From contig OZ024753.1 of NCBI GenBank assembly GCA_964016885.1, positions 2,480,001 through 2,544,000 of the forward strand: DNA of 64,000 nt, in the 5' to 3' direction. Positions 4,760-45,713 of the stretch are shown here, one piece after another. The notes beneath the pieces were generated by a model. That model did not search any database. It was not told where the DNA came from and saw only the letters and a list, made by a program, of their open reading frames with translations. Within the stretch, counting starts at the first letter, position 1. Each line of letters begins with the position of its first letter. This DNA is from Eledone cirrhosa (taxonomy: Eukaryota). The translations under genes and the position numbers were made by a program.

Positions 4760-5028
4760 TCATCATCATCATCATTTCATTTTTACGTCCATTTTTCCCT
4801 GCTTGCAAGGGTGGGACAGGAACTGATTCTGGCTTGATTTCTACAGCTGGATGCCCTTCCTAACACCAACCTCATTTACAGTGAGTGCTGGGTGCCTTTT
4901 TGCCGTGGCACCTCCACGACCACTTTACAGTGGAATGATATGGACCCCAGTCCCTATCGTCTCATTTCTACAGTTGAGTAAACTGGAGCAATCTGAAATA
5001 AAGTGTCTTGCTCAAGGAAACAACACAT
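4758..5028 (-). mobile_element. 5'-truncated CORE-type SINE with RTE-derived tail (family S1)
   Basis: Reverse complement of the 13190-13518 SINE from the CORE-like block (ccttgagcaagacacttta) to the (atg)n tail; tRNA head missing; flanked by TA arrays. Confidence 0.92.
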
Positions 5029-5616
5029 ATATATATATACATATACATATATATATACACACATATATATATATATACATATACACACATATATATATAT
5101 ACATATACACACGCATATATATATATTCATATACACACATATATATATATACATATACACACATATATATATATACATATACTCACGCATATATATATAT
5201 ACATATACACACACACACATATATATATATATACATATACACACACATTTATATATATATACATATACATATATACACACACATATATATATATACATAT
5301 ATATATACACACATATATATATACATATACATATACACACATACATATACATATATATACACACACATATACATATATATACACACACATATACATATAT
5401 ATACACACACATATATATACATATACATATATATATACACACATATATATATATATACATATATATATACACATATATATATACATATATATACACACAT
5501 ATATATATATACACATATATATATACATATATATACACACATATATATATATACACATATATATATACATATATATATATACACACATATATATATATAC
5601 ATATACATAAATATAT
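5029..5616. repeat. Compound (TA)/(CA) microsatellite
   Basis: Directly visible. Confidence 0.97.
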
Positions 5617-5932
5617 GATAGGAATTCACTTCGCCAAATTTCATTTCTTTGCCTGCTGTCCGAACGAAAATCATGTAAACGTAAGGTACAGACTTCATCT
5701 CTCTCTCTCTCATTTCGTATTTCAAGTCCAAATAGCCATTCTATCGCTAAAACAAACTACATTTTCTGTTCCTATTAAGTGCTAAATACGTTTAGGTTTT
5801 TGGACGTATTTAACTGAACAAATTTTGTATTTTTTTGTTAATCGCTTGTTAAATGCATAGACCTATCTCAATCATTACCTTCTTGCTAGCTACCCAACAC
5901 CCCTCCCTCCCACCCCCACACACCACCATTGC

Positions 5933-5997
5933 TATTACGTGGACCAATCATAAAACAGCCCCCACGTATCACCAGTATTATTACGCGGACCAATCAG
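5933..5997 (+). promoter_or_regulatory. Two CCAAT boxes in duplicated tattacgYggaccaatca units; candidate internal Pol II promoter of the LINE
   Basis: tattacgtggaccaatca (CCAAT at 5944) and tattacgcggaccaatca (CCAAT at 5990), upstream of ATGs at 6061 and 6121; resembles the NF-Y consensus. Confidence 0.4.
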
Positions 5998-6060
5998 AAA
6001 CCAGAGGCCTATACTATCGCTTGCCTGGTTGCCTTTCGATATACGATATATGATGGATGG

Positions 6061-9000
6061 ATGGACTGCGGAATCCTGGAGAGTGGAGGTGAGAGAGAAA
6101 AATCTGGACGCTCAGCGACAATGCCAAAGATAAAGACAAATTCACCCCTTGGACGAGAATGCGAGCACTCCTCATTGTTTCGACCGCGGACGGCTAACAT
6201 AACACCATCGCCCCCCGCCCCTCACCGCCCCCAACCCCCAAACGCAATCCAAAACTTCAGAGTTGGTACCATAAATGTAGGCACCCTAAAGGGTCGCGCT
6301 AACGAGGTTGTAGAAATGCTTGAACGTAAGGAGGTCGATGTTTGTTGTATTCAAGAGACCAGGTGGAGGGGTGGGTCTGCTAGGTTCATTGAGGGTAAAA
6401 AACGTTGTTATAAGCTTTTCTGGGTGGGAAACGACGATGGGCTGGGTGGAGTAGGAATCATGGTAGCAGAAAAGTGGGCAGATAAGATAATAGACGTAAA
6501 TAGAGTGAACGACAGAATAATTAAAATACGACTTGTCCTCAATAGAACTACGGTGACAGTAATATCTGCGTACGCACCCCAATCCGGACTGCCCGGCACT
6601 ATAAAAGACAGATTCTATGAGACACTGATGCTAACTACCTCCCAAATATCCGACAGTGACTATATAATTATCGCAGGCGACCTAAATGGTCACGTTGGAC
6701 AACATTGTGACGGCTACGACGAAATCCATGGAGGCTATGGGTTTGGTACTAGAAATGAGGAAGGCTCCAGAATCCTGGAATTCTGTGATGCAAATAACCT
6801 AACTATCTGTAACACTAACTTCAAAAAACGTGACAATCACCTGATCACCTATAGATCCGGGGAACACACAAGCCAGGTAGATTATATCCTTACCAGAAGA
6901 CGTGACAGAGTGTCTGTTGTTAACACTAAATCCCTCCCCCATGAAGAATGCACCTCCCAACATAGACTGATAATTAGCGACCTCATAGTCAGGACGAGAC
7001 GTACTCGACAACAGAAGAGGACTATCCTCAGGAGGAAAATATGGAAGTTAAAGGACCCCACAGCCAGGAATAAATTTCAAAGCATATTACTTGATGCTTT
7101 CGACAGTAAGGAAGAACATTTAGAGTCGGACAATATAGAGGGAGAGTGGGAATTTCTGAAAGCAAACCTGCTGTTGGCGACAGACGAGGTCTGTGGCTGG
7201 AGCAGGCCTGTAGGCAGGAGGAGAGTAACATGGTGGTGGAACAGTAAGGTGGAGGGGTCAATTAAGGCCAAAAAGCAGGCTTGGAAAGTATGGCGGGATG
7301 GGGGAAGTAGAGAGGACTATCAAGTGGCCAGGAGGGAAGCTAGGAGACAAGTGTACTTAGCAAGAAGGGAAGCTGAGGAAAGAAAGTTCAAGCATGTTCT
7401 ACAACGCGATGACCAAAAACGTGAGGTGTTCAGGATTGCTAGGCAATGCGTCAAGGAAAACCGTGATATTGTCGGGGAGAAGTGTGTACTAAACGACGAT
7501 GGCACACTTGCCATCACCGACGCTGATAAGAAGGTAGCTTGGAAGTGTCACTATGAAAGGCTTCTAAATGAGGAGAATAATTGGGAGAAAGGCAGTCTCC
7601 CCCATATCGACCAAATAGAGGGACCAGCAGTGTTAGTCGAGGGGAGTATAATAAGTAAGGCAATCAAGGATATGAAGACTGGTAAGGCGGCCGGGCCTTC
7701 GGAAATAGTTGCTGAGATGCTGAAGGCATCTGGCACGGTGGGACACACCATGGTCACCCGCATAGTTAACCAAGTCGTACAAAACGGGGTTGTTCCGAAG
7801 GACTGGCATGGCAGCATCATCGTTAACTGTTATAAGGGTAAAGGAGACGCCCTAGATAGGAGTAACTATAGAGGCATTAAATTAATCGACCAGGTCATGA
7901 AGGTCACGGAAAGAGTAATAGCGCAGCTAATCAGAGAGAGAATTGACCTAGATGAAATGCAGTTCGGGTTTGTGTCAGGCAAAAGTACCACAGACGCTCT
8001 TTTCATAGTACGACAACTACAAGAGAAGTACCTAGCTAAAGGTAAACCCCTCTACTTAGCTTTTGTCGACTTGGAGAAAGCCTTCGACAGAGTCCCCCGC
8101 TCCATTATCTGGTGGGCTCTTAGAAAACTAGGCGTTGACGAATGGCTTGTGAGGGCTATACAAGCCATGTATAAAGAAACAGTCAGCAAGGTTAGAATTA
8201 ACAACGAATATAGTGAAGAGTTTAGCGTAAAAGTCGGCGTCCATCAGGGCTCTGTTCTCAGTCCACTACTATTTATTATTGCCCTTCAGGCCATAACAGA
8301 GGAGTTCAAGACAGGCTGCCCATGGGAACTCCTATACGCAGACGACCTGACACTCATAGCGGAATCAATGGCCGAGCTAGAGAAGAAATTCCAAACATGG
8401 AAGCACGGCCTAGAGTCAAAAGGACTTAAAATTAACCTGGCTAAGACCAAAGTACTAGTTTGTAGGAAAGAAAACAAGGCGGCGGTCCCTTCTGGGAAAT
8501 GGTCGTGCTCGGTGTGTAGGAAAGGCGTAGGTAGAAACTCCATTTTATGTCCTAAATGCAAAGTATGGGTGCATAAAAGATGTAGTGGGATCACAGGTAG
8601 GCTAACTAAGAACATAGATTTTACATGTGGCCGGTGCTCTGGTGCAATAAGTAGCAGCAAGTGCCCACAAACTACTAGCTCTTTCAATTGCGCAGAGGGT
8701 TCTATAGAAATAGTGGACAGCTTCCGTTACCTGGGCGATAAAATCAGCAGTGGGGGAGGGTGCTCTGAAAGTACTGTAGCTAGAGTCAGAACTGGTTGGA
8801 AAAAGTTCAGAGAGCTTATACCACTATTAGCTGCTAAAGGGTTCTCACTAAAAATGAAAGGCAGGTTGTACGATGCCTGCATACGAACAGCAATGCTGCA
8901 TGGCAGTGAGACCTGGGCATTGTGTGCAGAGGATATACGCAGACTAGAGAGGAACGAAGCTTGCATGCTCCGCTGGATGTGTAACAGTAATATACGTGAA

Positions 9001-9291
9001 CGGCAAAGCATAAACGAACTAAGGAATAAATTAGAGATAAGAGGGATCAGATGTTGTTTACTCGAGAGAAGGCTACGTTGGTATGGACACGTGATGCGCA
9101 TGAAAGTCGATAGCTGTATAACAAAGTGCAGGGCAATAAAGATAGACGGTAGTCACGGAATAGGCAGACCTAGAAAAACCTGGGACGAGCTGATAAACTC
9201 CGACATCACACACTTACACCTCTCCAAGACAATGTCACTGGACCGAGACCTTTGGCGGTACTCAGTAACAGAGAAGACCCGCCTTACCTAA
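6061..9291 (+). CDS. RTE polyprotein: AP-like endonuclease + reverse transcriptase with inserted PHD finger
   Basis: APE motifs (GTINVGTL, CIQETRW, SAYAPQ, GDLNGH, DYIL, SQH); RT motifs (QFGF, FVDLEKAFD, GVHQGSVLSP, LLYADD with YADD at 8335-8346, FRYLG); RTE C-terminus ([22 protein letters not shown]). Start is ATG 6061 or 6121; the frame is open from 5929. Confidence 0.95.
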   Translation: MDCGILESGGEREKSGRSATMPKIKTNSPLGRECEHSSLFRPRTANITPSPPAPHRPQPPNAIQNFRVGTINVGTLKGRANEVVEMLERKEVDVCCIQETRWRGGSARFIEGKKRCYKLFWVGNDDGLGGVGIMVAEKWADKIIDVNRVNDRIIKIRLVLNRTTVTVISAYAPQSGLPGTIKDRFYETLMLTTSQISDSDYIIIAGDLNGHVGQHCDGYDEIHGGYGFGTRNEEGSRILEFCDANNLTICNTNFKKRDNHLITYRSGEHTSQVDYILTRRRDRVSVVNTKSLPHEECTSQHRLIISDLIVRTRRTRQQKRTILRRKIWKLKDPTARNKFQSILLDAFDSKEEHLESDNIEGEWEFLKANLLLATDEVCGWSRPVGRRRVTWWWNSKVEGSIKAKKQAWKVWRDGGSREDYQVARREARRQVYLARREAEERKFKHVLQRDDQKREVFRIARQCVKENRDIVGEKCVLNDDGTLAITDADKKVAWKCHYERLLNEENNWEKGSLPHIDQIEGPAVLVEGSIISKAIKDMKTGKAAGPSEIVAEMLKASGTVGHTMVTRIVNQVVQNGVVPKDWHGSIIVNCYKGKGDALDRSNYRGIKLIDQVMKVTERVIAQLIRERIDLDEMQFGFVSGKSTTDALFIVRQLQEKYLAKGKPLYLAFVDLEKAFDRVPRSIIWWALRKLGVDEWLVRAIQAMYKETVSKVRINNEYSEEFSVKVGVHQGSVLSPLLFIIALQAITEEFKTGCPWELLYADDLTLIAESMAELEKKFQTWKHGLESKGLKINLAKTKVLVCRKENKAAVPSGKWSCSVCRKGVGRNSILCPKCKVWVHKRCSGITGRLTKNIDFTCGRCSGAISSSKCPQTTSSFNCAEGSIEIVDSFRYLGDKISSGGGCSESTVARVRTGWKKFRELIPLLAAKGFSLKMKGRLYDACIRTAMLHGSETWALCAEDIRRLERNEACMLRWMCNSNIRERQSINELRNKLEIRGIRCCLLERRLRWYGHVMRMKVDSCITKCRAIKIDGSHGIGRPRKTWDELINSDITHLHLSKTMSLDRDLWRYSVTEKTRLT

Positions 9292-9752
9292 ATATATAGT
9301 AAAACCTACTCCAGCCAGTAGGCATCTCTAACAAATACACCCCGTCCCACCACCCCCACCCGATCCACACCACCCCGTTCTATGTAAAGTTATGTTGGTG
9401 CCGCGCCATCGAGGCCGAAACAAATGAGATCGTGTAGGTGTCACGACAAAAAAACACACAGTCCACGCTGTAATGTGGCCGTGTAGGCAACACGGTAAAA
9501 ACCTCCCAGACCCACACTGTAAATGTGGTTGGTGTTAGGAAGGGCATCCAACTGTAGAAAACCTGCCAGACAGTCCTATGCGAGCAAGACAATCACTCTT
9601 GCCTCAAGTGGGACTACCCCCGTCCAAACCCATGCAAGCGTGGAACACGGACGTTAAACGCTGATGATGATGATGATGATATATATATACACACACATAT
9701 ATATATATATATATACACACACACATATATATATATATATACATATATATAT

Positions 9753-9797
<45 letters not shown>

Positions 9798-10242
9798 TAT
9801 ATATATACACACACACATATATATACACACATATATATATATATACACATATATATATATATATATACACACACATATATATACACACACAGATATATAT
9901 ACACACATATATATATATATATACACATATATATACACACACATATATATATACATATACATATATATATACACATATATATACACACATATATATATAC
10001 ATATATATATACACACATATATACATATATATATACACACATATATACATATATATATACACATATATATATACACACATATATACATATATATATGCAC
10101 ATATATATACATATATATATACATATATATATACACACACACATATATATATATATACACACACACATATATATACAGACACATATATATATATATACAC
10201 ACATATATATATATATACACACATATATATATATATATACAG

Positions 10243-13189: not shown

Positions 13190-13518
13190 GAGGCACATGG
13201 CTTAGTGGTTAGAGCATTGGCCTTGCAATCGAAAGGTTGTGAGTTCAATTCTCTGACCGGGTGATGTGTTGTTTCCTTGAGCAAGACACTTTATATCACA
13301 TTGCTCCAGTTTACTCAGCTGTAGAAATGAGATGATAGGGGCTGGGGTCCATATCATTCCACTGCAAAGTGGTCGTGGATGTGCCATGGCAAAAAAGCAC
13401 CCAGCACTCACTGTAAATGAGGTTGGTGTTAGGAAGGGCATCCAGCTGTAGAAATCAAGCCAGAATCAGTTCCGGTCCCACCTTTGCAAGCAGGGAAAAG
13501 CGGACGTAAAATGATGAT
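13190..13518 (+). mobile_element. Full-length tRNA-derived CORE-type SINE with RTE tail (S1)
   Basis: A box tggcttagtgg, B box gagttcaattc, CORE-like ccttgagcaagacacttta, block shared with the R-A 3' UTR, (atg)n tail; TA flanks. Confidence 0.93.
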
Positions 13519-14042: not shown

Positions 14043-14482
14043 CACCAGGCTGATCATATGACAAGAAAATCTGACATTGTCGGAGGCCGTTCCAGCTGGT
14101 TTCCTTGAATGTTTCCTAACCTAGCATGAGTTTATCATTTCGAGCCAGAGACAATCTATGCAGTAAAAGCAACTCCTCCTCTCCTCTAAAGAAGGCCGAG
14201 GTCGTTTCATCTGCAGGGAAGCTGATGGTCTCAGTTGTTTGGGATGCAAAGGCATTGTGTTTATTGACTATCTTCAAAAGGTCCACACCATCAATGGAGA
14301 CTACTATGCCAACTTGCTGAGGTAATTATAAAAGACTATCAATACTAAACACCAAGGAAAACTGATGAAAGGAGCCTTGTTTCATCAGGACAATGCTCCA
14401 GCACACGATTCTTGGTTTCAATGGCTGCTGCATGTGACAGACTTTGAACTGTTTGATCACCCTCCCTATTCTCCTGATTTGG
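14043..14482 (+). mobile_element. Decayed mariner transposase fragment (catalytic region)
   Basis: Translates across frameshifts to SAGKLMVSVVWD, GALFHQDNAPAH and HPPYSPDL. Confidence 0.85.
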
Positions 14483-16234
14483 GCTGGTATATAATTTTAG
14501 CAAGCAGGAAATCATGAAGTTAATGTTGAACCCGGGAGGATTTTTATTCAGAGCCGGACAAAATACTACAAAGGCTTTTTTCTTTAAACTGTAATGACTT
14601 TACCTATTCATCACCTATCTCTGCCAATTCAAAATTAATAGAAACCAGAATAGTTAAATTACTCACGGAAATATAATCACTCTTATAACATCTGGAAACT
14701 GGTATACATTATACAATATATTTGAGTGTTTAGTGCAAAAAGATATTTGGAAATGTGTAATGAAACAGCCACCTCACAGAGCTCCCTCCACAAGTGGGCT
14801 GCTGTCTTTCTGATTTGACAGAGGAAATCAGCTGTGTGGTGACCAAAGAGACCCGAGCTCTTGACAGAGAGTGGTGCAAAGAGGAAGCAATCAGTCACAT
14901 GTCTGTATCTAACTACCTTTCTCTCCTCTGCATTGTCCTCTACCCCTTGATTTCTACAGAGCCCAAAAACATAAAACTAAAAACTACAAAAGAGATCAAT
15001 GCTTTAAAATTTTGCCTAAAATCACAGTATTAATGCCATAAATTCAAGCTACTGACAAAAAAATTAACCACAAAACATTTCCTGCTCAATAGTCGTCATT
15101 TTCTACGAGCATTTGGATGTATAGCTGAAACTTATGTCTCATAGTATTAAACAGATGAAAGCAAATTTCCATTTAGGGAGCTTGTCAAATGCATACTTCT
15201 TTCCCACTAGTTGCTCATTTATAAAACAAATTACATTAAACACAAGCAAATAACTAACACATGAATCAACAGAATACCAACAAACATGACCACACCACAT
15301 ATGCTACGTTATTCTATAAAATAGTTCACCTCTACACCTCAATGAAGTAATTTGATAGAATCTAAAATTAGGAGTCTGGTAGTCTGGTGTTTGAATATTT
15401 TAAGATATTTAATCCATAACACCTTGACAAGATGGAATCTATAGTTAATCTCTTATTCTTTTATTCTATTTTATTTCTGCTTTTTTTATTTCGCAGTATT
15501 ATTTTTTCAAGTTATTTAATGCAAATGTACAATGAAATTCCTGATTTCAGCTTAGATATGCTCACAATTTATTAGATTTTTAAAATAATTAGCTACCATA
15601 GCAGTAGACAGATTTCAGTATGTTTTACATTTAAATGATCTGATAGGAAACTGTCTTTTACTATGGAATTGAAATGCTTGAACTATATATTATATGAGAA
15701 CAAATCTCCAGCTAGCTATGTTAAATGAATTGTCTATTGTAGAGAGAATGAACTGTTGGTATTCTACTGGTCCTAGCTTATAACATGACAATTTTGTTAT
15801 TGAACAGCTGCAAATACCAAGACATACAAAAGGGGAAATACAATATAGCTGATAATTATATTAACTATCATGCAGTTTAATTTAGCTTGAAGAGGGAGAG
15901 CACTCATGATCTTTGTAAGATTCTAGCACTTGCAGGATTGCTGCAAATGATCTTCAGCTTGAACGTCCATAGGTTAATGTCCATAGGAAAAGTATGGGAT
16001 GAGATGTAATTTCATATGGCTGCAGTTCTATAGATGAACAATTAGATTAAGTGTTTAGCTGTATGATTTGCAGAATAAGATACAATAGAGATGAAAAAAG
16101 AAGGAAAAAGAGATGTATTAGATCAAATTTTGTAGATATAGTAAACGATATTCTGATTCACAGAAGTAGGCATCTTCTTCTTCTTCTTGAAAAGGTCAGT
16201 CCTCAAACCTTTTTTCCAGCAGGTCCTATTAGAA

Positions 16235-16926
16235 GCTTGAAATGATAAACCTAACACTTATCCTAGGTTAGGAAACATTCAAAGAAACCAGCTGGAACGG
16301 CCTCCCACAATGTCAGATTTTCTTGTCATGTGATCAGCCTGGTGTTCTTTTGATCAGATGTCAGAAGACATGGCACACACACTGTGCAGAAACCTTCATA
16401 ATGCCAAGGTCGTGGTGGATCATATCCTCAACTCTCTCACGGAGTATGCTAATAGCATTGGCTATTTGTTTTATAGCCAATTCCTTGTCATCCATCATCA
16501 TGTGGTGGACTTGATCAATGTTTTCCTTGTTGTTGGCAATTTCAGGACGTCCAGAACTTGGTTCATCTTCACAATTCTTTCTTCCCCTCCTAAATTCAGC
16601 AGCTCGTTTTTGCACTGTTGATAAAGCTAGAGCCTTATCCCCTAATGTAGCAAACATGTCAGTATGAAAGTCCTTGGTGACTAAACCCTTTTCCTGCAGG
16701 TACTTGATAAATCCATGATGCTAAATTTTATCCATTTTCAAGACAAGTCACTACTAGTTACTTTTGAAGTCATCTTTACACAATCAAATGTCAGTTTAAT
16801 TGAAATAAAACAATGCAGTTATTAATATGAAGTGTTGAAATTAATGCATGCAAGATTTCACAGCTCTAGCATTACTCCTTAATAGCCAGCATATCTCTTC
16901 AGCCCCCCCACCCCCCACCCCTTGTA
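16235..16926 (-). mobile_element. Decayed mariner element, 5' half (TIR remnant + HTH region)
   Basis: ORF 16361-16657 with STVQKRAAEFRRGR..EDEPSSGRP and LGIMKVSA; TA-caagggg..gctgaag terminus near 16926. Confidence 0.85.
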
Positions 16927-21654: not shown

Positions 21655-22288
21655 GTGGGTTCTATAGATAGCTTCCGGTACCTAGGTGATCAAATTAGCA
21701 TGGGGGGGTTCCGAGGCCATAGTATCTAGAATAAGGATGGGTTGGAAGAAGTTTAGGGAGCTGCTTCCTCTGTTGACTAAGAAGGGTTTCTCCCTGCGTA
21801 TGAAAGGACAGTTATATGATGCCTGTGTGAGATGCGTGATGCTGCATGGTAGTGATTCATGAGCAGCGACTGCAGAAGATATGCTGGAGGGAAATGAAGC
21901 AAGTATGCTCTGTTGGATGTGCAATGCCAATGTGCGTGAATGACCAAGCATAGATGAGTTGAGAAAGAAACTGTGTATAAGAGGGATAAGTTGTGGTGTG
22001 CAGGAGAGAAGGCTGAGATGGTATGGACATGTGATGTGCATGGAGGATGACCGCTGGGTAAAGAAGTGCCAAGAAATCCCAGTAGAAGGCAGACGCAGTA
22101 GAGGTAGACCATGAATAACATGGGCGGAGGTGGTGAAAGCAGACCTCAGATTGCAGAAACTCACCGAGGAGAGGACGAAGGACCGTGACAAGTGGAGAGA
22201 TGCTGTGCTGAATAGGACCCATCCAACCCTTGCAAGCAGGGAATAACGGACATAAAATGATGATAATGATGGTGGTGATGATGATGAT
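21655..22288 (+). mobile_element. 5'-truncated decayed RTE, second family (R-B) with short 3' UTR
   Basis: [32 protein letters not shown]; ends ccatccaacccttgcaagcagggaataacggacataaaa(tga)n. Confidence 0.9.
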
Positions 22289-23287: not shown

Positions 23288-24988
23288 TTCCCTGAGGGCA
23301 CCTGTGCCCTATTTTCATTTCTACAAACTAGAACTTTAGTCTTAGACAAGTTGACTTTAAGGCCTTTTGATTCTAGGCCATGCTTCCATGTTTGTAATTT
23401 CTTCTCTAGTTCAGCCAATGATTCAGCTATGAGCGTTAGATCATCTGTGTATAGGAGTTCCCATGGGCAGCCGGTCTTGAACTCCTCTGTTATAGCCTGA
23501 AGGGCAATAATAAATAGGAGGGGGCTAAGTACAGAGCCTTGATAACACCAACTTTTACACTAAATTCTTCACAATATCTATTGTTAATTCTAGCCTTACT
23601 GACTGTTTCTTTATACATAGCTTGTATAGCTCTCACAAGCCATTCATCTACACCTAGTTTTCTAAGAGCCCACCAGATAATGGAGCGGGGGACACTGTCA
23701 AAGGCTTTCTCCAGGTCTACAAAAGCTAAGCAGAGGGGTTTATTTTTAGCTAGGTTCTTCTGTAGTTGTCGTACAAGGAAAAAGCGTCTGTGGTACTTTT
23801 ATCTGACACAAACCCAAACTGCATTTCATCTAGATCAAAACGCTCTCTGATTAATTGCGCTATAACTCTTTCTGTGACCTTCATGACCTGGTCAACTAAC
23901 TTAATGCCTCTATAGTTTCCCCTATCTAGAGCATGCCCTTTACCCTTGTAGCAGTTAATGATGATGCTGCTATGCCAGTCTTTTGGTATGACCTCATTCT
24001 GTATTACTTGGTTAACTATACGGGTGACCATAGTATGTCCCACCATTCCAGATGCCAACAACATCTCAGCAACTATCTCCGAAGGCCCAGCTACTTTGCC
24101 TGTCTTCATATCTTTGATTGCCTTCCTTATTATACTACCTTTAACTTGCACCGCTGGTCCTTCTATTGGATCGATTTGGGGAAGACTATCTTTTTCCCAT
24201 TTATTCTCCTCATTTAATAGTTTCTCATAGTCACACTTCCAGGCTATTTTCTTATCAGTATCAGTGAGGGCAAGTACACCGTTATCATTACGGACATACT
24301 TCTCCCCGACAATATCACGTTTTCCTTGACACATTGTTTAGTAATCCTGAACACCTCACGTTTTTGGTCCTCATGTTGTAGAAGATGCTTGAACTTTCTA
24401 TCCTCTACTTCCCCTTTTGCAAGGTACACTTGTCTCCTAGCTTCTCTCCTGGCCACTTGATAGTGCTCTCTACTTCCCCCATCGCACCATACTTTCCAAG
24501 CCTGCTTTTAGGCTTTGATGGTCTCCTCCACCTTACTGTTCCACCACCAAGTTACTCTCCTCCTGCCAATAGGTCTGCTCCAGCCACAGATTTCATCTGT
24601 TGCTTTCAGCAGGTTCACTTTCAAGAGTTGCCACTGTTCCTCTATATTGCACGTCTCTAATTGCTCTTCTTTATTGTCAAAGGCATCAAGTAATAAGCTT
24701 TTAAATTTGTCACTGGCTATGGGGTCCTTCAACTTCCATATTCTTCTCCTCAAGGTAGGCCTCCTCTGTCATTGAGTACATCTATTCTGACTATGAGGTC
24801 ACTAGCTACTAGGCTATGTTGGGAGGTGCATTCTTCATGGGGGAGGGATTTATTGTTTACAACAGACACTTTGTCCTGTCTTCTAGTAAGGATATAATCT
24901 ATCTGGCTGGCCTGTTCCCCTGATCTATAGGTTTTCTAAGTGGTTTTCTCGTTTGTTGAAGTTTGTGTTACAGATAGTTAGGTTTGTA
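23288..24988 (-). mobile_element. Older R-A-related RTE fragment (end of APE through RT), frameshifted
   Basis: ORF pieces 24508-24753, 24244-24456 and 23750-24334 are collinear and highly similar to the intact protein. Confidence 0.93.
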
Positions 24989-27389: not shown

Positions 27390-28212
27390 GGGTTCTCCCT
27401 AAAAATGAAAGGCAGGTTGTACGATGCCTGCATACGAACAGCAATGTTGCATGGTAGTGAGACCTGGGCATTGTGTGCAGAGGATATACGCAGACTAGAG
27501 AGGAACGAAGCTTGCATGCTCCGCTGGATGTGTAACAGTAATATACGTGAACGGCAAAGCATAAACGAACTAAGGAAAAAATTAGAGATAAGAGGGATCA
27601 GATGTTGTTTACTCGAGAGAAGGCTGCGTTGGTATGGACACGTGATGCGCATGAAAGTCGATAGCTGTATTACAAAGTGCAGGGCAATAAAGATAGACGG
27701 TAGCCACGGAATAGGCAGACCTAGAAAAACATGGGATGAGCTGATAAACTCCGACCTCACACACTTACACCTCTCCAAGACAATGTCACTGGACCGTGAC
27801 CTTTGGCGGTACTCAGTAACAGAGAAGACCCGCCTTGCCAGTAGGCATCTCTAACAAAATACACCCCTCCCGCCGCCACCCCCACCCCATCCACACCACC
27901 CCGTTCTATGTAAAGTTATGTTGGTGCCGCGCCATCCAGGCCGAAACAAATGAGATCGTGTAGGTGTCACGACAAAAAAACACACAGTCCACGCTGTAAT
28001 GTGGCCGTGTAGGCAACACGGTAAAAACCTCGCAGACCCACACTGTAAATGTGGTTGGTGTTAGGAAGGGCATCCAACTGTAGAAAACCTGCCAGACAGT
28101 CCTATGCGAGCAAGACAATCACTCTTGCCTCAAGTGGGACTACCCCCGTCCAAACCCATGCAAGCGTGGAACACGGACGTTAAACGTTGATGATGATGAT
28201 GATGATGATGAT
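27390..28212 (+). mobile_element. 5'-truncated R-A RTE copy
   Basis: Nearly identical to 8839-9680 apart from a ~28-nt indel at the stop codon; TA flanks. Confidence 0.96.
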
Positions 28213-28427
28213 ATATATATATGTTTATAAGTATATATGTTTATATATATAAGTATGTATACGTACATACATATATGTATACAGACGTACAGTAGTATGT
28301 ATATATATATGTGCGTATGGATTCACGGAACATTTATTATAATCTTCGGTGTGTTTGTAAACAAACATCCCGTATAAAGCCGCAGTGTCTAGCAACCATC
28401 GTTGCTCATTTGTTCAACACTGACAAA

Positions 28428-29655: not shown

Positions 29656-29993
29656 GGCACATGGCTTAGTGGTTAGAGCATTGGCCTTGCAATCGAAAGG
29701 TTGTGAGTTCAATTCTCAGACCGGGTGATGTGTTGTTTCCTTGAGCAAGACACTTTATTTCACATTGCTCCAGTTTACTCAGCCGTAGAAATGAGATGAT
29801 AGGGACCGGGGTCCATATCATTCCACTGCAAAGTGGATGTGTAGGCGCCATGGCAAAAAAGCACCCAGCACTCACTGTAAATGAGGTTGGTGTTAGGAAG
29901 GGCATCCAGCTGTAGAAATCAAGCCAGAATCAGTTCCCATCCCACCCTTGCAAGCAGGGAAAAGCAGATGTAAAATGAAATGATGATGATGAT
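29653..29993 (+). mobile_element. Full-length S1 SINE
   Basis: Highly similar to 13190-13518; inserted in (TA)n. Confidence 0.94.
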
Positions 29994-39582: not shown

Positions 39583-39924
39583 GGAGGCACATGGCTTAGT
39601 GGTTAGAGCATTGGCCTTGCAATCGAAAGGTTGTGAGTTCAATTCTCAGACCGGGTGATGTGTTGTTTCCTTGAGCAAGACACTTTATTTCACATTGCTC
39701 CAGTTTACTCAGCTGTAGAAATGAGATGATAGGGACTGGGGTCCATATCATTCCACTGCAAAGTGGTCGTGGAGGTGCCACGGCAAAAAGGCACCCATCA
39801 CTCACTGTAAATAAGGTTGGTGTTAGGAAGGGCATCCAGCTGTAGAAATCAAGCCAGAATCAGTTCCCGTCCCACCCTTGCGAGCAGGGAAAAGTGGACG
39901 TAAAATGAAATGATGATGATGATG
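39583..39924 (+). mobile_element. Full-length S1 SINE
   Basis: As 13190-13518. Confidence 0.94.
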
Positions 39925-41378: not shown

Positions 41379-43936
41379 ATTCTTTTACCTGTTCCAGCCA
41401 TCCGGCTGAGGCCATGCTGGGGCACCGCCCTTGTTGCTACACATTTTATCTCCAGCCTGTATAGGTTGGCCACTGGTGTAAGAGGGCGTTTGTTGCTGCT
41501 GCCCTTAGATTTCCCTCGTGTCTTGCTGTGGGCTCATCCGGGATCCTGGATAACAAGATGTCGAGATGTTTCTTGAAGACATCCACCTCCACGACATACA
41601 AATCTCTCGGATCCCTCGGCAGCTTGTTGAAGAGTTGAGGGCCCTTGAATCCCAGGCTATTGCAATACCTGCTTCTTATTCTAGATGTGGAAGACGGGAC
41701 CTTTGGCACCACACAGTGACGTCCTGTTCAACGGTTGGTCCAGCTCCCAATGCCAAAGTTTGGTGCTAGTCCCTCCAGGATTTTCCACATGTAGATCACT
41801 GCATATCTCTCCCGTCTTCGCTCCAAGGAGTAGAGGTTCAGTTCCTTTAGCCTCTCCCAGTAGCTTGTCTCCCTCATCTTGGCAATCCTCTTGGTGTAGC
41901 TTCGCTGGATTGCCTCAAGCTCCGTGGTTAGTTTGACACTATGGGGTGACCACAACTGGGAGCAGTAGTCCAGGCGGCTTAGGACAAATGTCCTCCATAG
42001 TGTCAACATGGTGTCTCGATCTCTTGTCCGGAAAGTCCTCAAGATCCAGCCAGCGAGTCGTCTGCACATTGTCGCCACTTTCATGATGTGTGAAGAAAAA
42101 GATGCATCATTGCTCATGTCTATGCCCATGTCTCGTATCGATTTTGACACGGGGATATCGGTCCCTCCTGGTCCTGTGTAGTTGTGTTCCACTATATTTG
42201 TGTTTGCAGGTTTGTAGGGCTTGGAATTTGCCAGCATTAAACTGCATGTTGTTTTCTTCCGCCCATCTGTATATGGCATCCAGATCCTGCTGTAAAAGGG
42301 CAGCGTCAGCCGGGTTTTTGATTGCCTGTGCTACCTTAGTGTCATCAGCATAGCTAGTGAGGGATGTTGTTGTATGTACTACAGCGGGCATGTCTGAGAG
42401 AGCCACCAAAAACAGTAGTGGTCCCAGGACTATCCCCTGGGGCACCCCACTTGTTATTGGTGTTTCCTTTGAGAGAGCCCCATTTGCTGCGACTGCCTGG
42501 CTTCTGTCCCTTAGGAAGCCATGCAGCCACTCACCTACTTTTCCAGTTATGCCGAGTCCGTGTAGTTTGTGACATATCATTCCGTAGTCGACCTTGTCAA
42601 AGGCCTTCGCAAATTCAAGATATATCACGTCCACATGTGAGCTGTCTAGTAGTTGTCTCAGTACCCAGTCGTAGTGATGTAGCAGCTGTGTAAGGCAGCT
42701 TCTTCCTGGGCGGAAGCCATGTTGCGTGCTAGTCAGGCGGTCATTTTCCTTGAGGAAAGTGATCAGTTTCTTTCTGACGACTCGCTCCATGACCTTACTG
42801 ATATGCGACGTCAGGGAGACTGGCCTATAGTTTTTGGCCTCCGCTCTGCTACCTCCTTTATGGATAGGGCATATTGTGCCTTCTTTCAGCTCCCTGGGTA
42901 GTACACCGCTAGCCAAGGAGCTTCTGAAGAGCATCTTCAGTGGAGTTGCTAAGGCCTGCTTACATATTTTTAAGAGAACTGCTGGGAATCCATCAGGTCC
43001 AGCAGCCGAGTCTGTTCTAATTTCATCAATGGCGTACACCACATCCTCCTCCATTATGTCTATGTGGTTGATGGTCGCCATTTCTTCATGTAGTGTTGTG
43101 GCATCAAAGAACTTCTCTGGCTTCGTTATTTGCATGTGCCTCAGTGGACATGTGAACACACTTTTGTACTGTTTGTTCAGTATTTCACATATCTCATGGG
43201 GGTTTTCGGTTAATGAACCGTCCGTATGCAAGAGTGGCCCAATCTTGCAGTGTACTGAGGCAGTTTCTTTTGCAAATTTAAAGAAGGCCTTAGGGTTTGT
43301 TTTAATGTTTTCTATGGCCCTGTTCTCTTTCTTTTCCCTCTCATTCTCATGGGAAAGCTTCAGTGCAATCTCGGTGCCAAGTAATGCACATTTCAAATAG
43401 GATTCCTTCTTGTTTTTGTTTTGTTGACTATTCAACTGGTTTGAGAGTTTGGTTCTATGTCTCATAAGGATTTTCCTATCTCTGGGAATAAGATTTTTGC
43501 ATATAGTGTATATCGTTGTCATGAAGTGTTGAAATTGTGTGTTAGTGTCTTGTGTGGAGGTGTTTTCACTCCACGTTTGCTTCCGGATTTCTCTCTCAAT
43601 CTATTTCCAGTTAGCCTTGTAGAAGTTAAGGCTGGATAACGTCCCGGAGCTTCTTGGTGGTTTTGTCTCTGTTGGTTCTCTTGGACCACATATCATTAGC
43701 TCTACTAAGTTATGATCCGAGAGAATTGTTGGTGTCACCTTTACATTGTGGATGAGCACTTCGTTGTTTGTAAAACAGAGGTCCAGGACATTTTCGCCTC
43801 TTGTTGGGAGGAGTATTGCTTGCTCCATGAACAGCCTGTGTGTGAGGGCCAGCAGGGATTCCATCTGTCTCTGTCCTATTGATGTCATTCCAGGGAGGAG
43901 GTGGCCCTCAGGCCATTTGACCTTTGGTAGGTTGTA
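41379..43936 (-). mobile_element. 5'-truncated, frameshifted CR1-group LINE (end of APE, RT, 3' UTR)
   Basis: [83 protein letters not shown]; TA arrays at both ends. Confidence 0.93.
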
Positions 43937-44512: not shown

Positions 44513-44643
44513 ATATACATATACATATATATATACATATACATATATATACATATATATATACATATACATATATATATACATATATATACATATATAT
44601 ATACATATATATATATACATATATATACATATACATATATATA
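43937..44643. repeat. Compound TA array switching from TG- to CA-interrupted
   Basis: Polarity switch near 44220-44280. Confidence 0.95.
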
Positions 44644-45713
44644 CATCATCATCATCATCATCATCAACGTTTAACGTCCGTGTTCCACGCTTGCATGGGT
44701 TTGGACGGGGGTAGTCCCACTTGAGGCAAGAGTGATTGTCTTGCTCACATAGGACTGTCTGGCAGGTTTTCTACAGTTGGATGCCCTTCCTAACACCAAC
44801 CACATTTACAGTGTGGGTCTGGGAGGTTTTTACCGTGTTGCCTACACGGCCACATTACAGCGTGGACTGTGTGTTTTTTTGTCGTGACACCTACACGATC
44901 TCATTTGTTTCGGCCTCGATGGCGCGGCACCAACATAACTTTACATAGAACGGGGTGGTGTGGATCGGGTGGGGGTGGGGGTGGTGGGACGGGGTGTATT
45001 TTGTTAGAGATGCCTACTGGCTGGAGTAGGTTTTACTATATATTTAGGTAAGGCGGGTCTTCTCTGTTACTGAGTACCGCCAAAGGTCTCGGTCCAGTGA
45101 CATTGTCTTGGAGAGGTGTAAGTGTGTGATGTCGGAGTTTATCAGCTCGTCCCAGGTTTTTCTAGGTCTGCCTATTCCGTGACTACCGTCTATCTTTATT
45201 GCCCTGCACTTTGTTATACAGCTATCGACTTTCATGCGCATCACGTGTCCATACCAACGTAGCCTTCTCTCGAGTAAACAACATCTGATCCCTCTTATCT
45301 CTAATTTATTCCTTAGTTCGTTTATGCTTTGCCGTTCACGTATATTACTGTTACACATCCAGCGGAGCATGCAAGCTTCGTTCCTCTCTAGTCTGCGTAT
45401 ATCCTCTGCACACAATGCCCAGGTCTCACTGCCATGCAGCATTGCTGTTCGTATGCAGGCATCGTACAACCTGCCTTTCATTTTTAGTGAGAACCCTTTA
45501 GCAGCTAATAGTGGTATAAGCTCTCTGAACTTTTTCCAACCAGTTCTGACTCTAGCTACAGTACTTTCAGAGCACCCTCCCCCACTGCTGATTTTATCGC
45601 CCAGGTAACGGAAGCTGTCCACTATTTCTATAGAACCCTCTGCGCAATTGAAAGAGCTAGTAGTTTGTGGGCACTTGCTGCTACTTATTGCACCAGAGCA
45701 CCGGCCACATGTA
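44644..45713 (-). mobile_element. 5'-truncated R-A RTE copy, almost identical to the intact element
   Basis: Translated part identical from TCGRCSG to TRLT*; few differences in the 3' UTR. Confidence 0.97.

Follow-up and report, generated by a model that had tools for sequence, protein, structure and literature searches.

PHD fingers carried by LINEs are known from ORF1, or the N-terminus, of CR1/L2 elements, where a targeting role was proposed and, as of 2014, functionally untested (PMC4120745; papers given by PMC number are cited throughout from the portions available). The preliminary description of the DNA analysed here, which named CR1/L2 ORF1 as the best-known home of such fingers, agrees with that source. 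Like the finger reported here, those of CR1/L2 are LINE-borne and their top structural matches are mostly Pygo PHDs (2vpb and 3zpv); they precede the endonuclease and belong to Jockey-group elements, whereas ours lies inside the reverse transcriptase (RT) palm of an RTE element. An insertion between RT motifs 6 and 7 is also known from R2 elements, i.e. insertion 6a. In R2Bm, the 6a loop (residues 672–677) reads an upstream target motif and is required for nicking (PMC10499050), and in vertebrate R2s 6a likewise wedges into target DNA (PMC11601368). The R2 loop is short and basic and reads bases of a fixed rDNA site; by contrast, the insert described here is predicted to be a folded two-zinc domain, in an element without a fixed site.

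Where a retroelement lands is biased by chromodomains in the integrases of LTR retrotransposons and, for HIV, by the LEDGF PWWP tether. They resemble the present case in placing a chromatin-reader module beside the integration machinery; they serve integrases, whereas here the predicted reader fold is built into the RT of an element that inserts by target priming. Members of the RTE clade are defined by a single ORF with an APE endonuclease and an RT, and by a short tandem-repeat 3' tail instead of poly(A).

The window (i.e. the whole 64-kb stretch of DNA that was analysed) contains an intact LINE at ~5607–9680 (+). This element, its flanks and its relatives in the window comprise the following features:

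4990–5606 (left edge approximate): (TA/CA)n microsatellite, 5' flank of the insertion
5607–5892 (+): 5' UTR, part of one ~455-bp monomer, beginning at the monomer's TATA-like box
5890–9291 (+): single intact ORF with APE, RT, PHD and thumb; 1133 codons stop to stop, with ATGs at 6061 and 6121
6268–6975 (+): APE endonuclease domain (PF03372, PF14529)
7858–8460 (+): RT core (PF00078), with YADD at 8335 and KTKVL at 8443
9292–9680 (+): 3' UTR and (GAT)6 tail (9663–9680), the tail joined to the target at AT
9681–10240: (TA/CA)n microsatellite, 3' flank of the insertion
23288–24984 (−): older broken relative, 85% identical, stopping just short of the PHD
27390–28219 (+): 5'-truncated copy, 94% identical, microsatellite on both sides
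44638–45713 (−): second copy, 99% identical, 5'-truncated within the PHD, microsatellite on both sides

The claim of an intact RTE-type LINE is borne out by the 1133-codon ORF. As in other RTE non-LTR relatives, APE and RT share one ORF (with no second ORF upstream inside the 5' UTR monomer), the 3' tail is a short repeat rather than poly(A), and 5' truncation is frequent. The PHD-bearing LINE family is very abundant and was recently copied. The 150 scored matches in this 3.0-Gb genome are all 100% identical to the 107-aa query, several own-genome matches sit in 1133-codon open frames, and the 30 copies fetched are ~99–100% identical to the window copy at the DNA level, with a (GAT)4–9 tail in 30/30. 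The first-pass search gave 61,555 own-genome candidates, a figure that is not a copy number. An active RTE is on record in Octopus bimaculoides (PMC9115989). For RTE-2_OV of Octopus vulgaris, the available part of the same paper describes a C2H2 finger and names no PHD domain, and it is by this description only that we set it apart from the present family.

Several repeats related to the family were also observed. Its 5' UTR forms a tandem array of ~455–478 bp monomers, each with a TATA-like box, and at least 10 monomers occur at one C7 locus (L074–L102, e.g. G000:C7:47578622-47583912); the arrangement is reminiscent of mouse L1 monomer promoters. Repeats at 4828–4930, 13362–13464, 29826–29928 and 39756–39858 match the LINE 3' UTR block 9468–9570 (80–83%) and are sited in (TA)n, and most of the four then carry a (GAT)n tail. 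These repeats are likely to be SINEs or truncated relatives mobilised by a PHD-clade RTE. A copy at 21667–22280 has a 3' end similar to theirs. The window also holds a broken RT of another LINE clade at 41728–43600 (−) (PF00078), which we take to be CR1/L2-like, and fragments at 14119–16720 (−) that are presumably a mariner-type transposase, judging by motif likeness.

The finger lies in frame within the ORF, between RT motif 6 (KTKVL, 8443) and motif 7 (FRYLG, 8722):

8458–8493 (+): variable linker 1 after RT motif 6, in the sequence slot of the R2Bm 6a loop
8494–8637 (+): PHD finger (GKW..C4HC3), residues 792–839 counted from Met 6121, with 11 K/R and 1 D/E (Pfam; model pLDDT 91–95; Foldseek)
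8638–8721 (+): variable linker 2 and beta-hairpin leading into motif 7
8722–8736 (+): RT motif 7 (FRYLG)

The first Cys begins at 8506 and the final Cys ends at 8637, and the spacing read there earlier, C-x2-C-x10-C-x2-C-x4-H-x2-C-x14-C-x2-C, matches exactly. The Pfam PHD model (PF00628) scores 28 bits on the whole ORF and 31.9 bits on the excised piece, over its cut-off of 24. C1 and RING folds were considered for the finger and rejected, both Pfam models falling below their own cut-offs. In a predicted structure running from the RT to the C-terminus (mean pLDDT 94.5), the finger is modelled confidently (91–95) and the flanking linkers less so (76 for linker 1 and 66 for linker 2). A Foldseek search with the excised finger returned PHD structures as its top rows (probability 1.00; none to E 0.001, the domain being short), with an rmsd of 1.9 Å over 47 columns for the TAF3 PHD and 1.9–2.0 Å for TAF3/Pygo PHDs. 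Across the query and 41 relatives (~45–57% identity, with one partial match at 64%), six ligands and the His are kept in 42/42 sequences and the last two Cys in 41/42, and therefore the C4HC3 pattern is not a chance one. Conservation of Cys and His across families was one of the points on which the earlier proposal of a PHD fold was to stand or fall, and on this point it stands. From profile match and predicted fold, we regard 8506–8637 as confirmed to encode a C4HC3 PHD finger.

The preliminary description had placed the finger near the end of the RT, beside the thumb. It does follow KTKVL; however, lying between motifs 6 and 7, it is inside the RT palm and before motif 7, not after the RT. 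A motif 6–7 linker length was obtained for 139 of 191 proteins. Of these, 64 (query included) have a linker of 80–93 aa and 75 have one of 20–33 aa; many proteins of the latter group are almost identical members of a single family. The short linker that had been attributed to ordinary RTEs is thus that of the PHD-less relatives, in contrast to the 80–93 aa insert of the PHD clade. The RT-to-C-terminus model matches R2Bm (Z 23.9, rmsd 3.3 Å, 446 aligned) and R2Tg (Z 25.8, rmsd 3.3 Å, 461 aligned). Query RT residues 90–286 align to R2Bm 462–666, and the alignment runs to 666–669, where the insert starts. By sequence position, the predicted finger fills the slot of the R2 6a loop.

Phylogeny and dN/dS of insert-bearing RTEs had been proposed as checks, and both came out in favour of a retained domain. 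A PHD match is found in 63/63 long-insert members. The tree was built from the 129 of 191 proteins with both RT segments (69 after dropping rows >80% identical), with the insert excluded. In this quick, midpoint-rooted tree, made up of unnamed relatives only, all 47 PHD rows fall under one branch (SH-aLRT 98), along with two rows without a whole finger (P0057, which retains a remnant, and P0065, which shows none). Named relatives come from O. bimaculoides and the catfish Neoarius graeffei, the best being an O. bimaculoides protein with 57% identity, from which an octopus host is likely. On these alignments, the insert likely marks one widespread RTE clade, with a single gain and rare losses as the simplest reading. 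The catfish PHD-RTE protein (P0005/P0193) carries an NCBI annotation as a slc22a21 isoform, a label that is likely to be a gene-model artefact.

Between three subfamilies of this genome, dN/dS is 0.08–0.14 for the finger (Fisher p 4e-9 to 3e-4) and 0.04–0.08 for its first half, for copies that were chosen by likeness to the PHD-bearing query, which favours intact fingers, and with synonymous sites in the finger differing at 31–62%. The same three subfamilies give 0.24–0.38 for linker 2 and ~0.05 for the RT core where synonymous sites are unsaturated. The predicted finger is under purifying selection. A tolerated passenger without function might be expected to leave rows such as the two in the clade that lack a whole finger, but the low dN/dS and the retention of the finger in 47/49 clade rows make this reading hardly credible. 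Internal deletions take out most of the finger in copies L125, L127 and L135, none of which was amplified as a subfamily among the loci seen.

Known PHD fingers offer several models for a ligand. In Pygo1, the methyl-lysine cage consists of W366, Y341 and D352 on a base of V350 and A356, and mutation of E360 abolishes binding (PMC2726290). Histone-binding PHDs are typically negative-faced, while basic VEL PHDs bind DNA or RNA weakly and do not bind the H3 tail, and some PHD fingers can bind non-histone ligands via the aromatic residue before the last Cys pair (PMC9640981). Two yeast PHDs are given in a review as H3K36me3 binders (PMC3241642), and PZP domains bind H3 and DNA together (PMC10124903). 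The candidate pocket of the present finger is as follows:

8500–8568 (+): predicted pocket residues W794 (8500), V803 (8527), S807 (8539) and W816 (8566), at the Pygo1 slots Y341, V350, A356 and W366, respectively

Pocket and charge were surveyed in the 81 of 191 proteins that fit the PHD pattern, near-duplicates included (median identity between pairs, 52%). The Pygo cage slots hold Val in 81/81, Trp in 80/81, Ser/Ala in 80/81 and W/Y/F in 72/81. The Trp two residues before the His, to which an aromatic-cage position had been assigned, is kept in 80/81, and the pocket-dividing Trp and semi-aromatic cage of H3K4me2/3 readers are both present. The acidic residues that such readers have at the cage lip and after Cys3 are lacking among the 81 proteins: the Pygo D352 slot is acidic in 1/81 and the E360 slot in 2/81. 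Net charge of the finger has a median of +7 (range +1 to +12; n=81), against +1.8 per 48 aa for the rest of the protein, and the first half has no acidic residue in 57/81. The finger therefore shares with the PHDs of Pygo1/2 and TAF3, which are H3K4me readers, the fold and the hydrophobic cage slots, but it lacks equivalents of D352 and E360 and is strongly positive where they have an acidic binding face. Modelling the finger together with residues 2–33 of the host H3 tail and two Zn gave a score of 0.11, under the mark of 0.34, and speaks neither for nor against binding.

Taken together, the retention of a hydrophobic pocket within a basic surface suggests binding at the level of the nucleosome, as far as residue conservation can indicate. 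In this combination we presume a likeness to PWWP readers. Alternatively, the finger could bind a non-histone host protein (e.g. an elongation or repair factor) that brings the element to transcribed genes. The aromatic residue used for such ligands (C7-2) is F/Y in 81/81, and a gene-body bias would also result. However, this residue belongs to the PHD signature and its conservation is expected anyway, surface conservation is highest on the front half with the pocket (dN/dS 0.04–0.08), and no partner is known; we consider a host-protein partner unlikely.

Insertion sites were analysed at two scales. Locally, the tail joins a TA-rich microsatellite in 17/30 young PHD copies and 7/29 other PHD copies, and visible 5' junctions are TA-rich in 13/22 copies, compared with 8% of background 20-mers. 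Among PHD-less families, 3' flanks are TA-rich in 9/25 copies of family D (9 copies of which were readable at the linker, with a short one in each) and in 2/13 of family E. The finger as the cause of (TA)n targeting was rejected: PHD-less family D shares the preference (9/25 vs background 8%), which is therefore not the finger's work. It is probably the endonuclease and tail pairing, rather than the finger, that set the exact base at which the target is cut, frequently (TA)n with the junction at the AT of the tail.

Some copies (L001, L002, L017 and L018) are inserted in 18–50 bp minisatellite arrays, with the same array unit on both sides; in the last of these, 26 bp on one side of the insertion match the other side, possibly as a target-site duplication. 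In the 3' flanks of L015, L019, L030 and L033, a single (TA)n tract often contains the copy along with further (GAT)n-tailed elements, arranged tail to tail or nested.

On the regional scale, all repeats were masked, flanks with too little unique DNA were dropped and a CpG observed/expected ratio (o/e) <0.6 was taken as CpG-poor. The 10-kb set as fetched comprised 40 young PHD, 20 older PHD, 40 family D and a small background of 20 random stretches. In this set, 25/29 young PHD and 15/18 older PHD flanks are CpG-poor, against 8/35 for PHD-less family D and 3/16 for random stretches. The 7-kb flanks give 22/27 for young PHD, 16/18 for older PHD (family B), 10/38 for family D and 5/15 for random stretches (PHD-bearing vs PHD-less, p=2.6e-6); short 3' flanks gave CpG estimates too noisy to separate the families well. 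Families B and D are of similar age and differ strongly (p=1.2e-5), in a contrast that does not isolate the finger because family D differs from the PHD families across the whole protein. Family E, judged PHD-less from the motif 6–7 slot alone, is also often CpG-poor (12/19 of its 7-kb flanks; median 0.42), indistinguishable from the young PHD family (p=0.38) and marginally different from random (p=0.048). This weakens the link of the finger to CpG-poor DNA. Family E is older (82% pairwise identity), and its skew may reflect better retention of old copies in introns; a PHD-independent bias is another possible cause.

Several observations bear on the nature of these regions. TpG/CpA is up in step with CpG loss, as methylation-driven decay predicts, and the window itself has a CpG o/e of 0.30. 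PHD-clade pieces occur in 9/11 CpG-poor control flanks vs 3/40 CpG-normal ones. Within copies, the rate of change at CpG sites exceeded that at other C/G sites by a factor of 4.2 in family B, 2.8 in family D and 2.6 in family E. The near-identity of the young copies makes it likely that the surrounding DNA had lost its CpGs before they inserted. Flanks with a host Pfam exon are CpG-poor in 7/7 cases (0.28–0.52); the excess of exon-bearing flanks (6/60 vs 1/60) is not significant (p=0.11; low power), and no host exon was identified by eye within the window. Exons of exportin-1 (CRM1) follow directly downstream of one young copy and share its orientation (L009:422-499(−), L220; Pfam CRM1_repeat_3 and CRM1_C); this copy is likely in an intron. 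In O. bimaculoides, methylation is on constitutive gene bodies and is scant in promoters and transposons (PMC9476566). The copies thus lie mostly in CpG-poor DNA that likely represents the bodies of active, methylated genes, with methylation taken from CpG loss and from that paper on another genome.

No promoter bias was seen: after repeat masking, no flank of the young family has a CpG o/e >0.83, which makes H3K4me3 reading unlikely. The proposal that the finger steers target choice is therefore upheld only in part, i.e. as a correlation with CpG-poor flanks in two PHD families and not as a bias to promoters. A canonical H3K4me2/3 reader directing insertions to promoters or enhancers would agree with the kept Trp and with the nearest folds among those listed (TAF3 and Pygo PHDs). 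The absence of acidic H3 anchors, including the E360 equivalent on which Pygo binding depends, the strongly basic surface and the CpG-poor flanks, set against the scant promoter methylation of octopus, argue against it, and we regard H3K4me3 reading, towards which the preliminary description pointed, and promoter targeting with it, as improbable.

The main rival to a chromatin tether is that the finger is a nucleic-acid clamp only, which binds target DNA or element RNA and raises efficiency, with the regional bias arising from open transcribed chromatin or intron retention. A nucleic-acid-reading module had been named as an alternative in the preliminary description and stays a possibility. 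Such a clamp would suit the high positive charge and the scarcity of acidic residues in the first half, the position in the slot of the DNA-reading loop of R2, the nucleic-acid binding of VEL PHDs and the similar CpG skew of PHD-less family E. However, a plain basic clamp would not need the four near-invariant hydrophobic pocket positions, and PHD-less family D, of an age like that of family B, is without the skew (10/38 vs 16/18). A clamp alone seems to us rather doubtful.

The reading that we prefer is that the finger, in the RT slot that would face the target, serves to tether the enzyme to chromatin, favouring the bodies of constitutively active, likely methylated genes, and we judge its prospects to be evenly balanced. 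Like the 6a loop of R2, the slot would be turned towards target DNA on the upstream side, and the finger would hold the RT on nucleosomes or DNA in gene bodies during target-primed reverse transcription. The aromatic/Val/Ser/Trp pocket might hold a methyl-lysine while the basic surface holds DNA, and such tethering would yield a regional bias. Given this pocket and surface, an internal gene-body mark (e.g. H3K36me3) would suit the finger better than the H3 N-terminus. That the RT-embedded reader of this widespread animal clade recognises such a mark (e.g. H3K36me3 combined with DNA of the nucleosome) and thereby steers insertions into constitutively expressed genes is a more tentative suggestion, possible but not probable.

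In the literature searched, which took in neither Repbase nor the majority of subscription journals, we found no description of a PHD in RTEs or within any RT; an earlier description is possible. The available portions of PMC12988792, PMC9004415, PMC3849965 and PMC3747384 contain nothing on a PHD insert. Pfam annotations of database proteins already pair RVT_1 with PHD, and so the co-occurrence is on record, uncommented. An Atlas search with a homologue gave no feature match; by structure, it gave three RVT_1+PHD clusters, all of them named automatically.

The choice of genomic regions by LINEs that have no fixed target is an open question. This clade permits a direct test, with (i) a single-ORF, recently active element; (ii) a small, removable domain; (iii) natural PHD-less sister lineages; and (iv) a measurable bias. 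If the finger tethers the enzyme, the motif 6–7 slot would be marked out as a site at which an RT can accommodate an entire targeting domain, a point of relevance to RNA-templated gene-insertion tools. The finger would then do for a LINE, and from within its own ORF, what LEDGF or chromodomain tethers do elsewhere, and its action would explain how the gene bodies of this genome came to be filled with one transposable element family.
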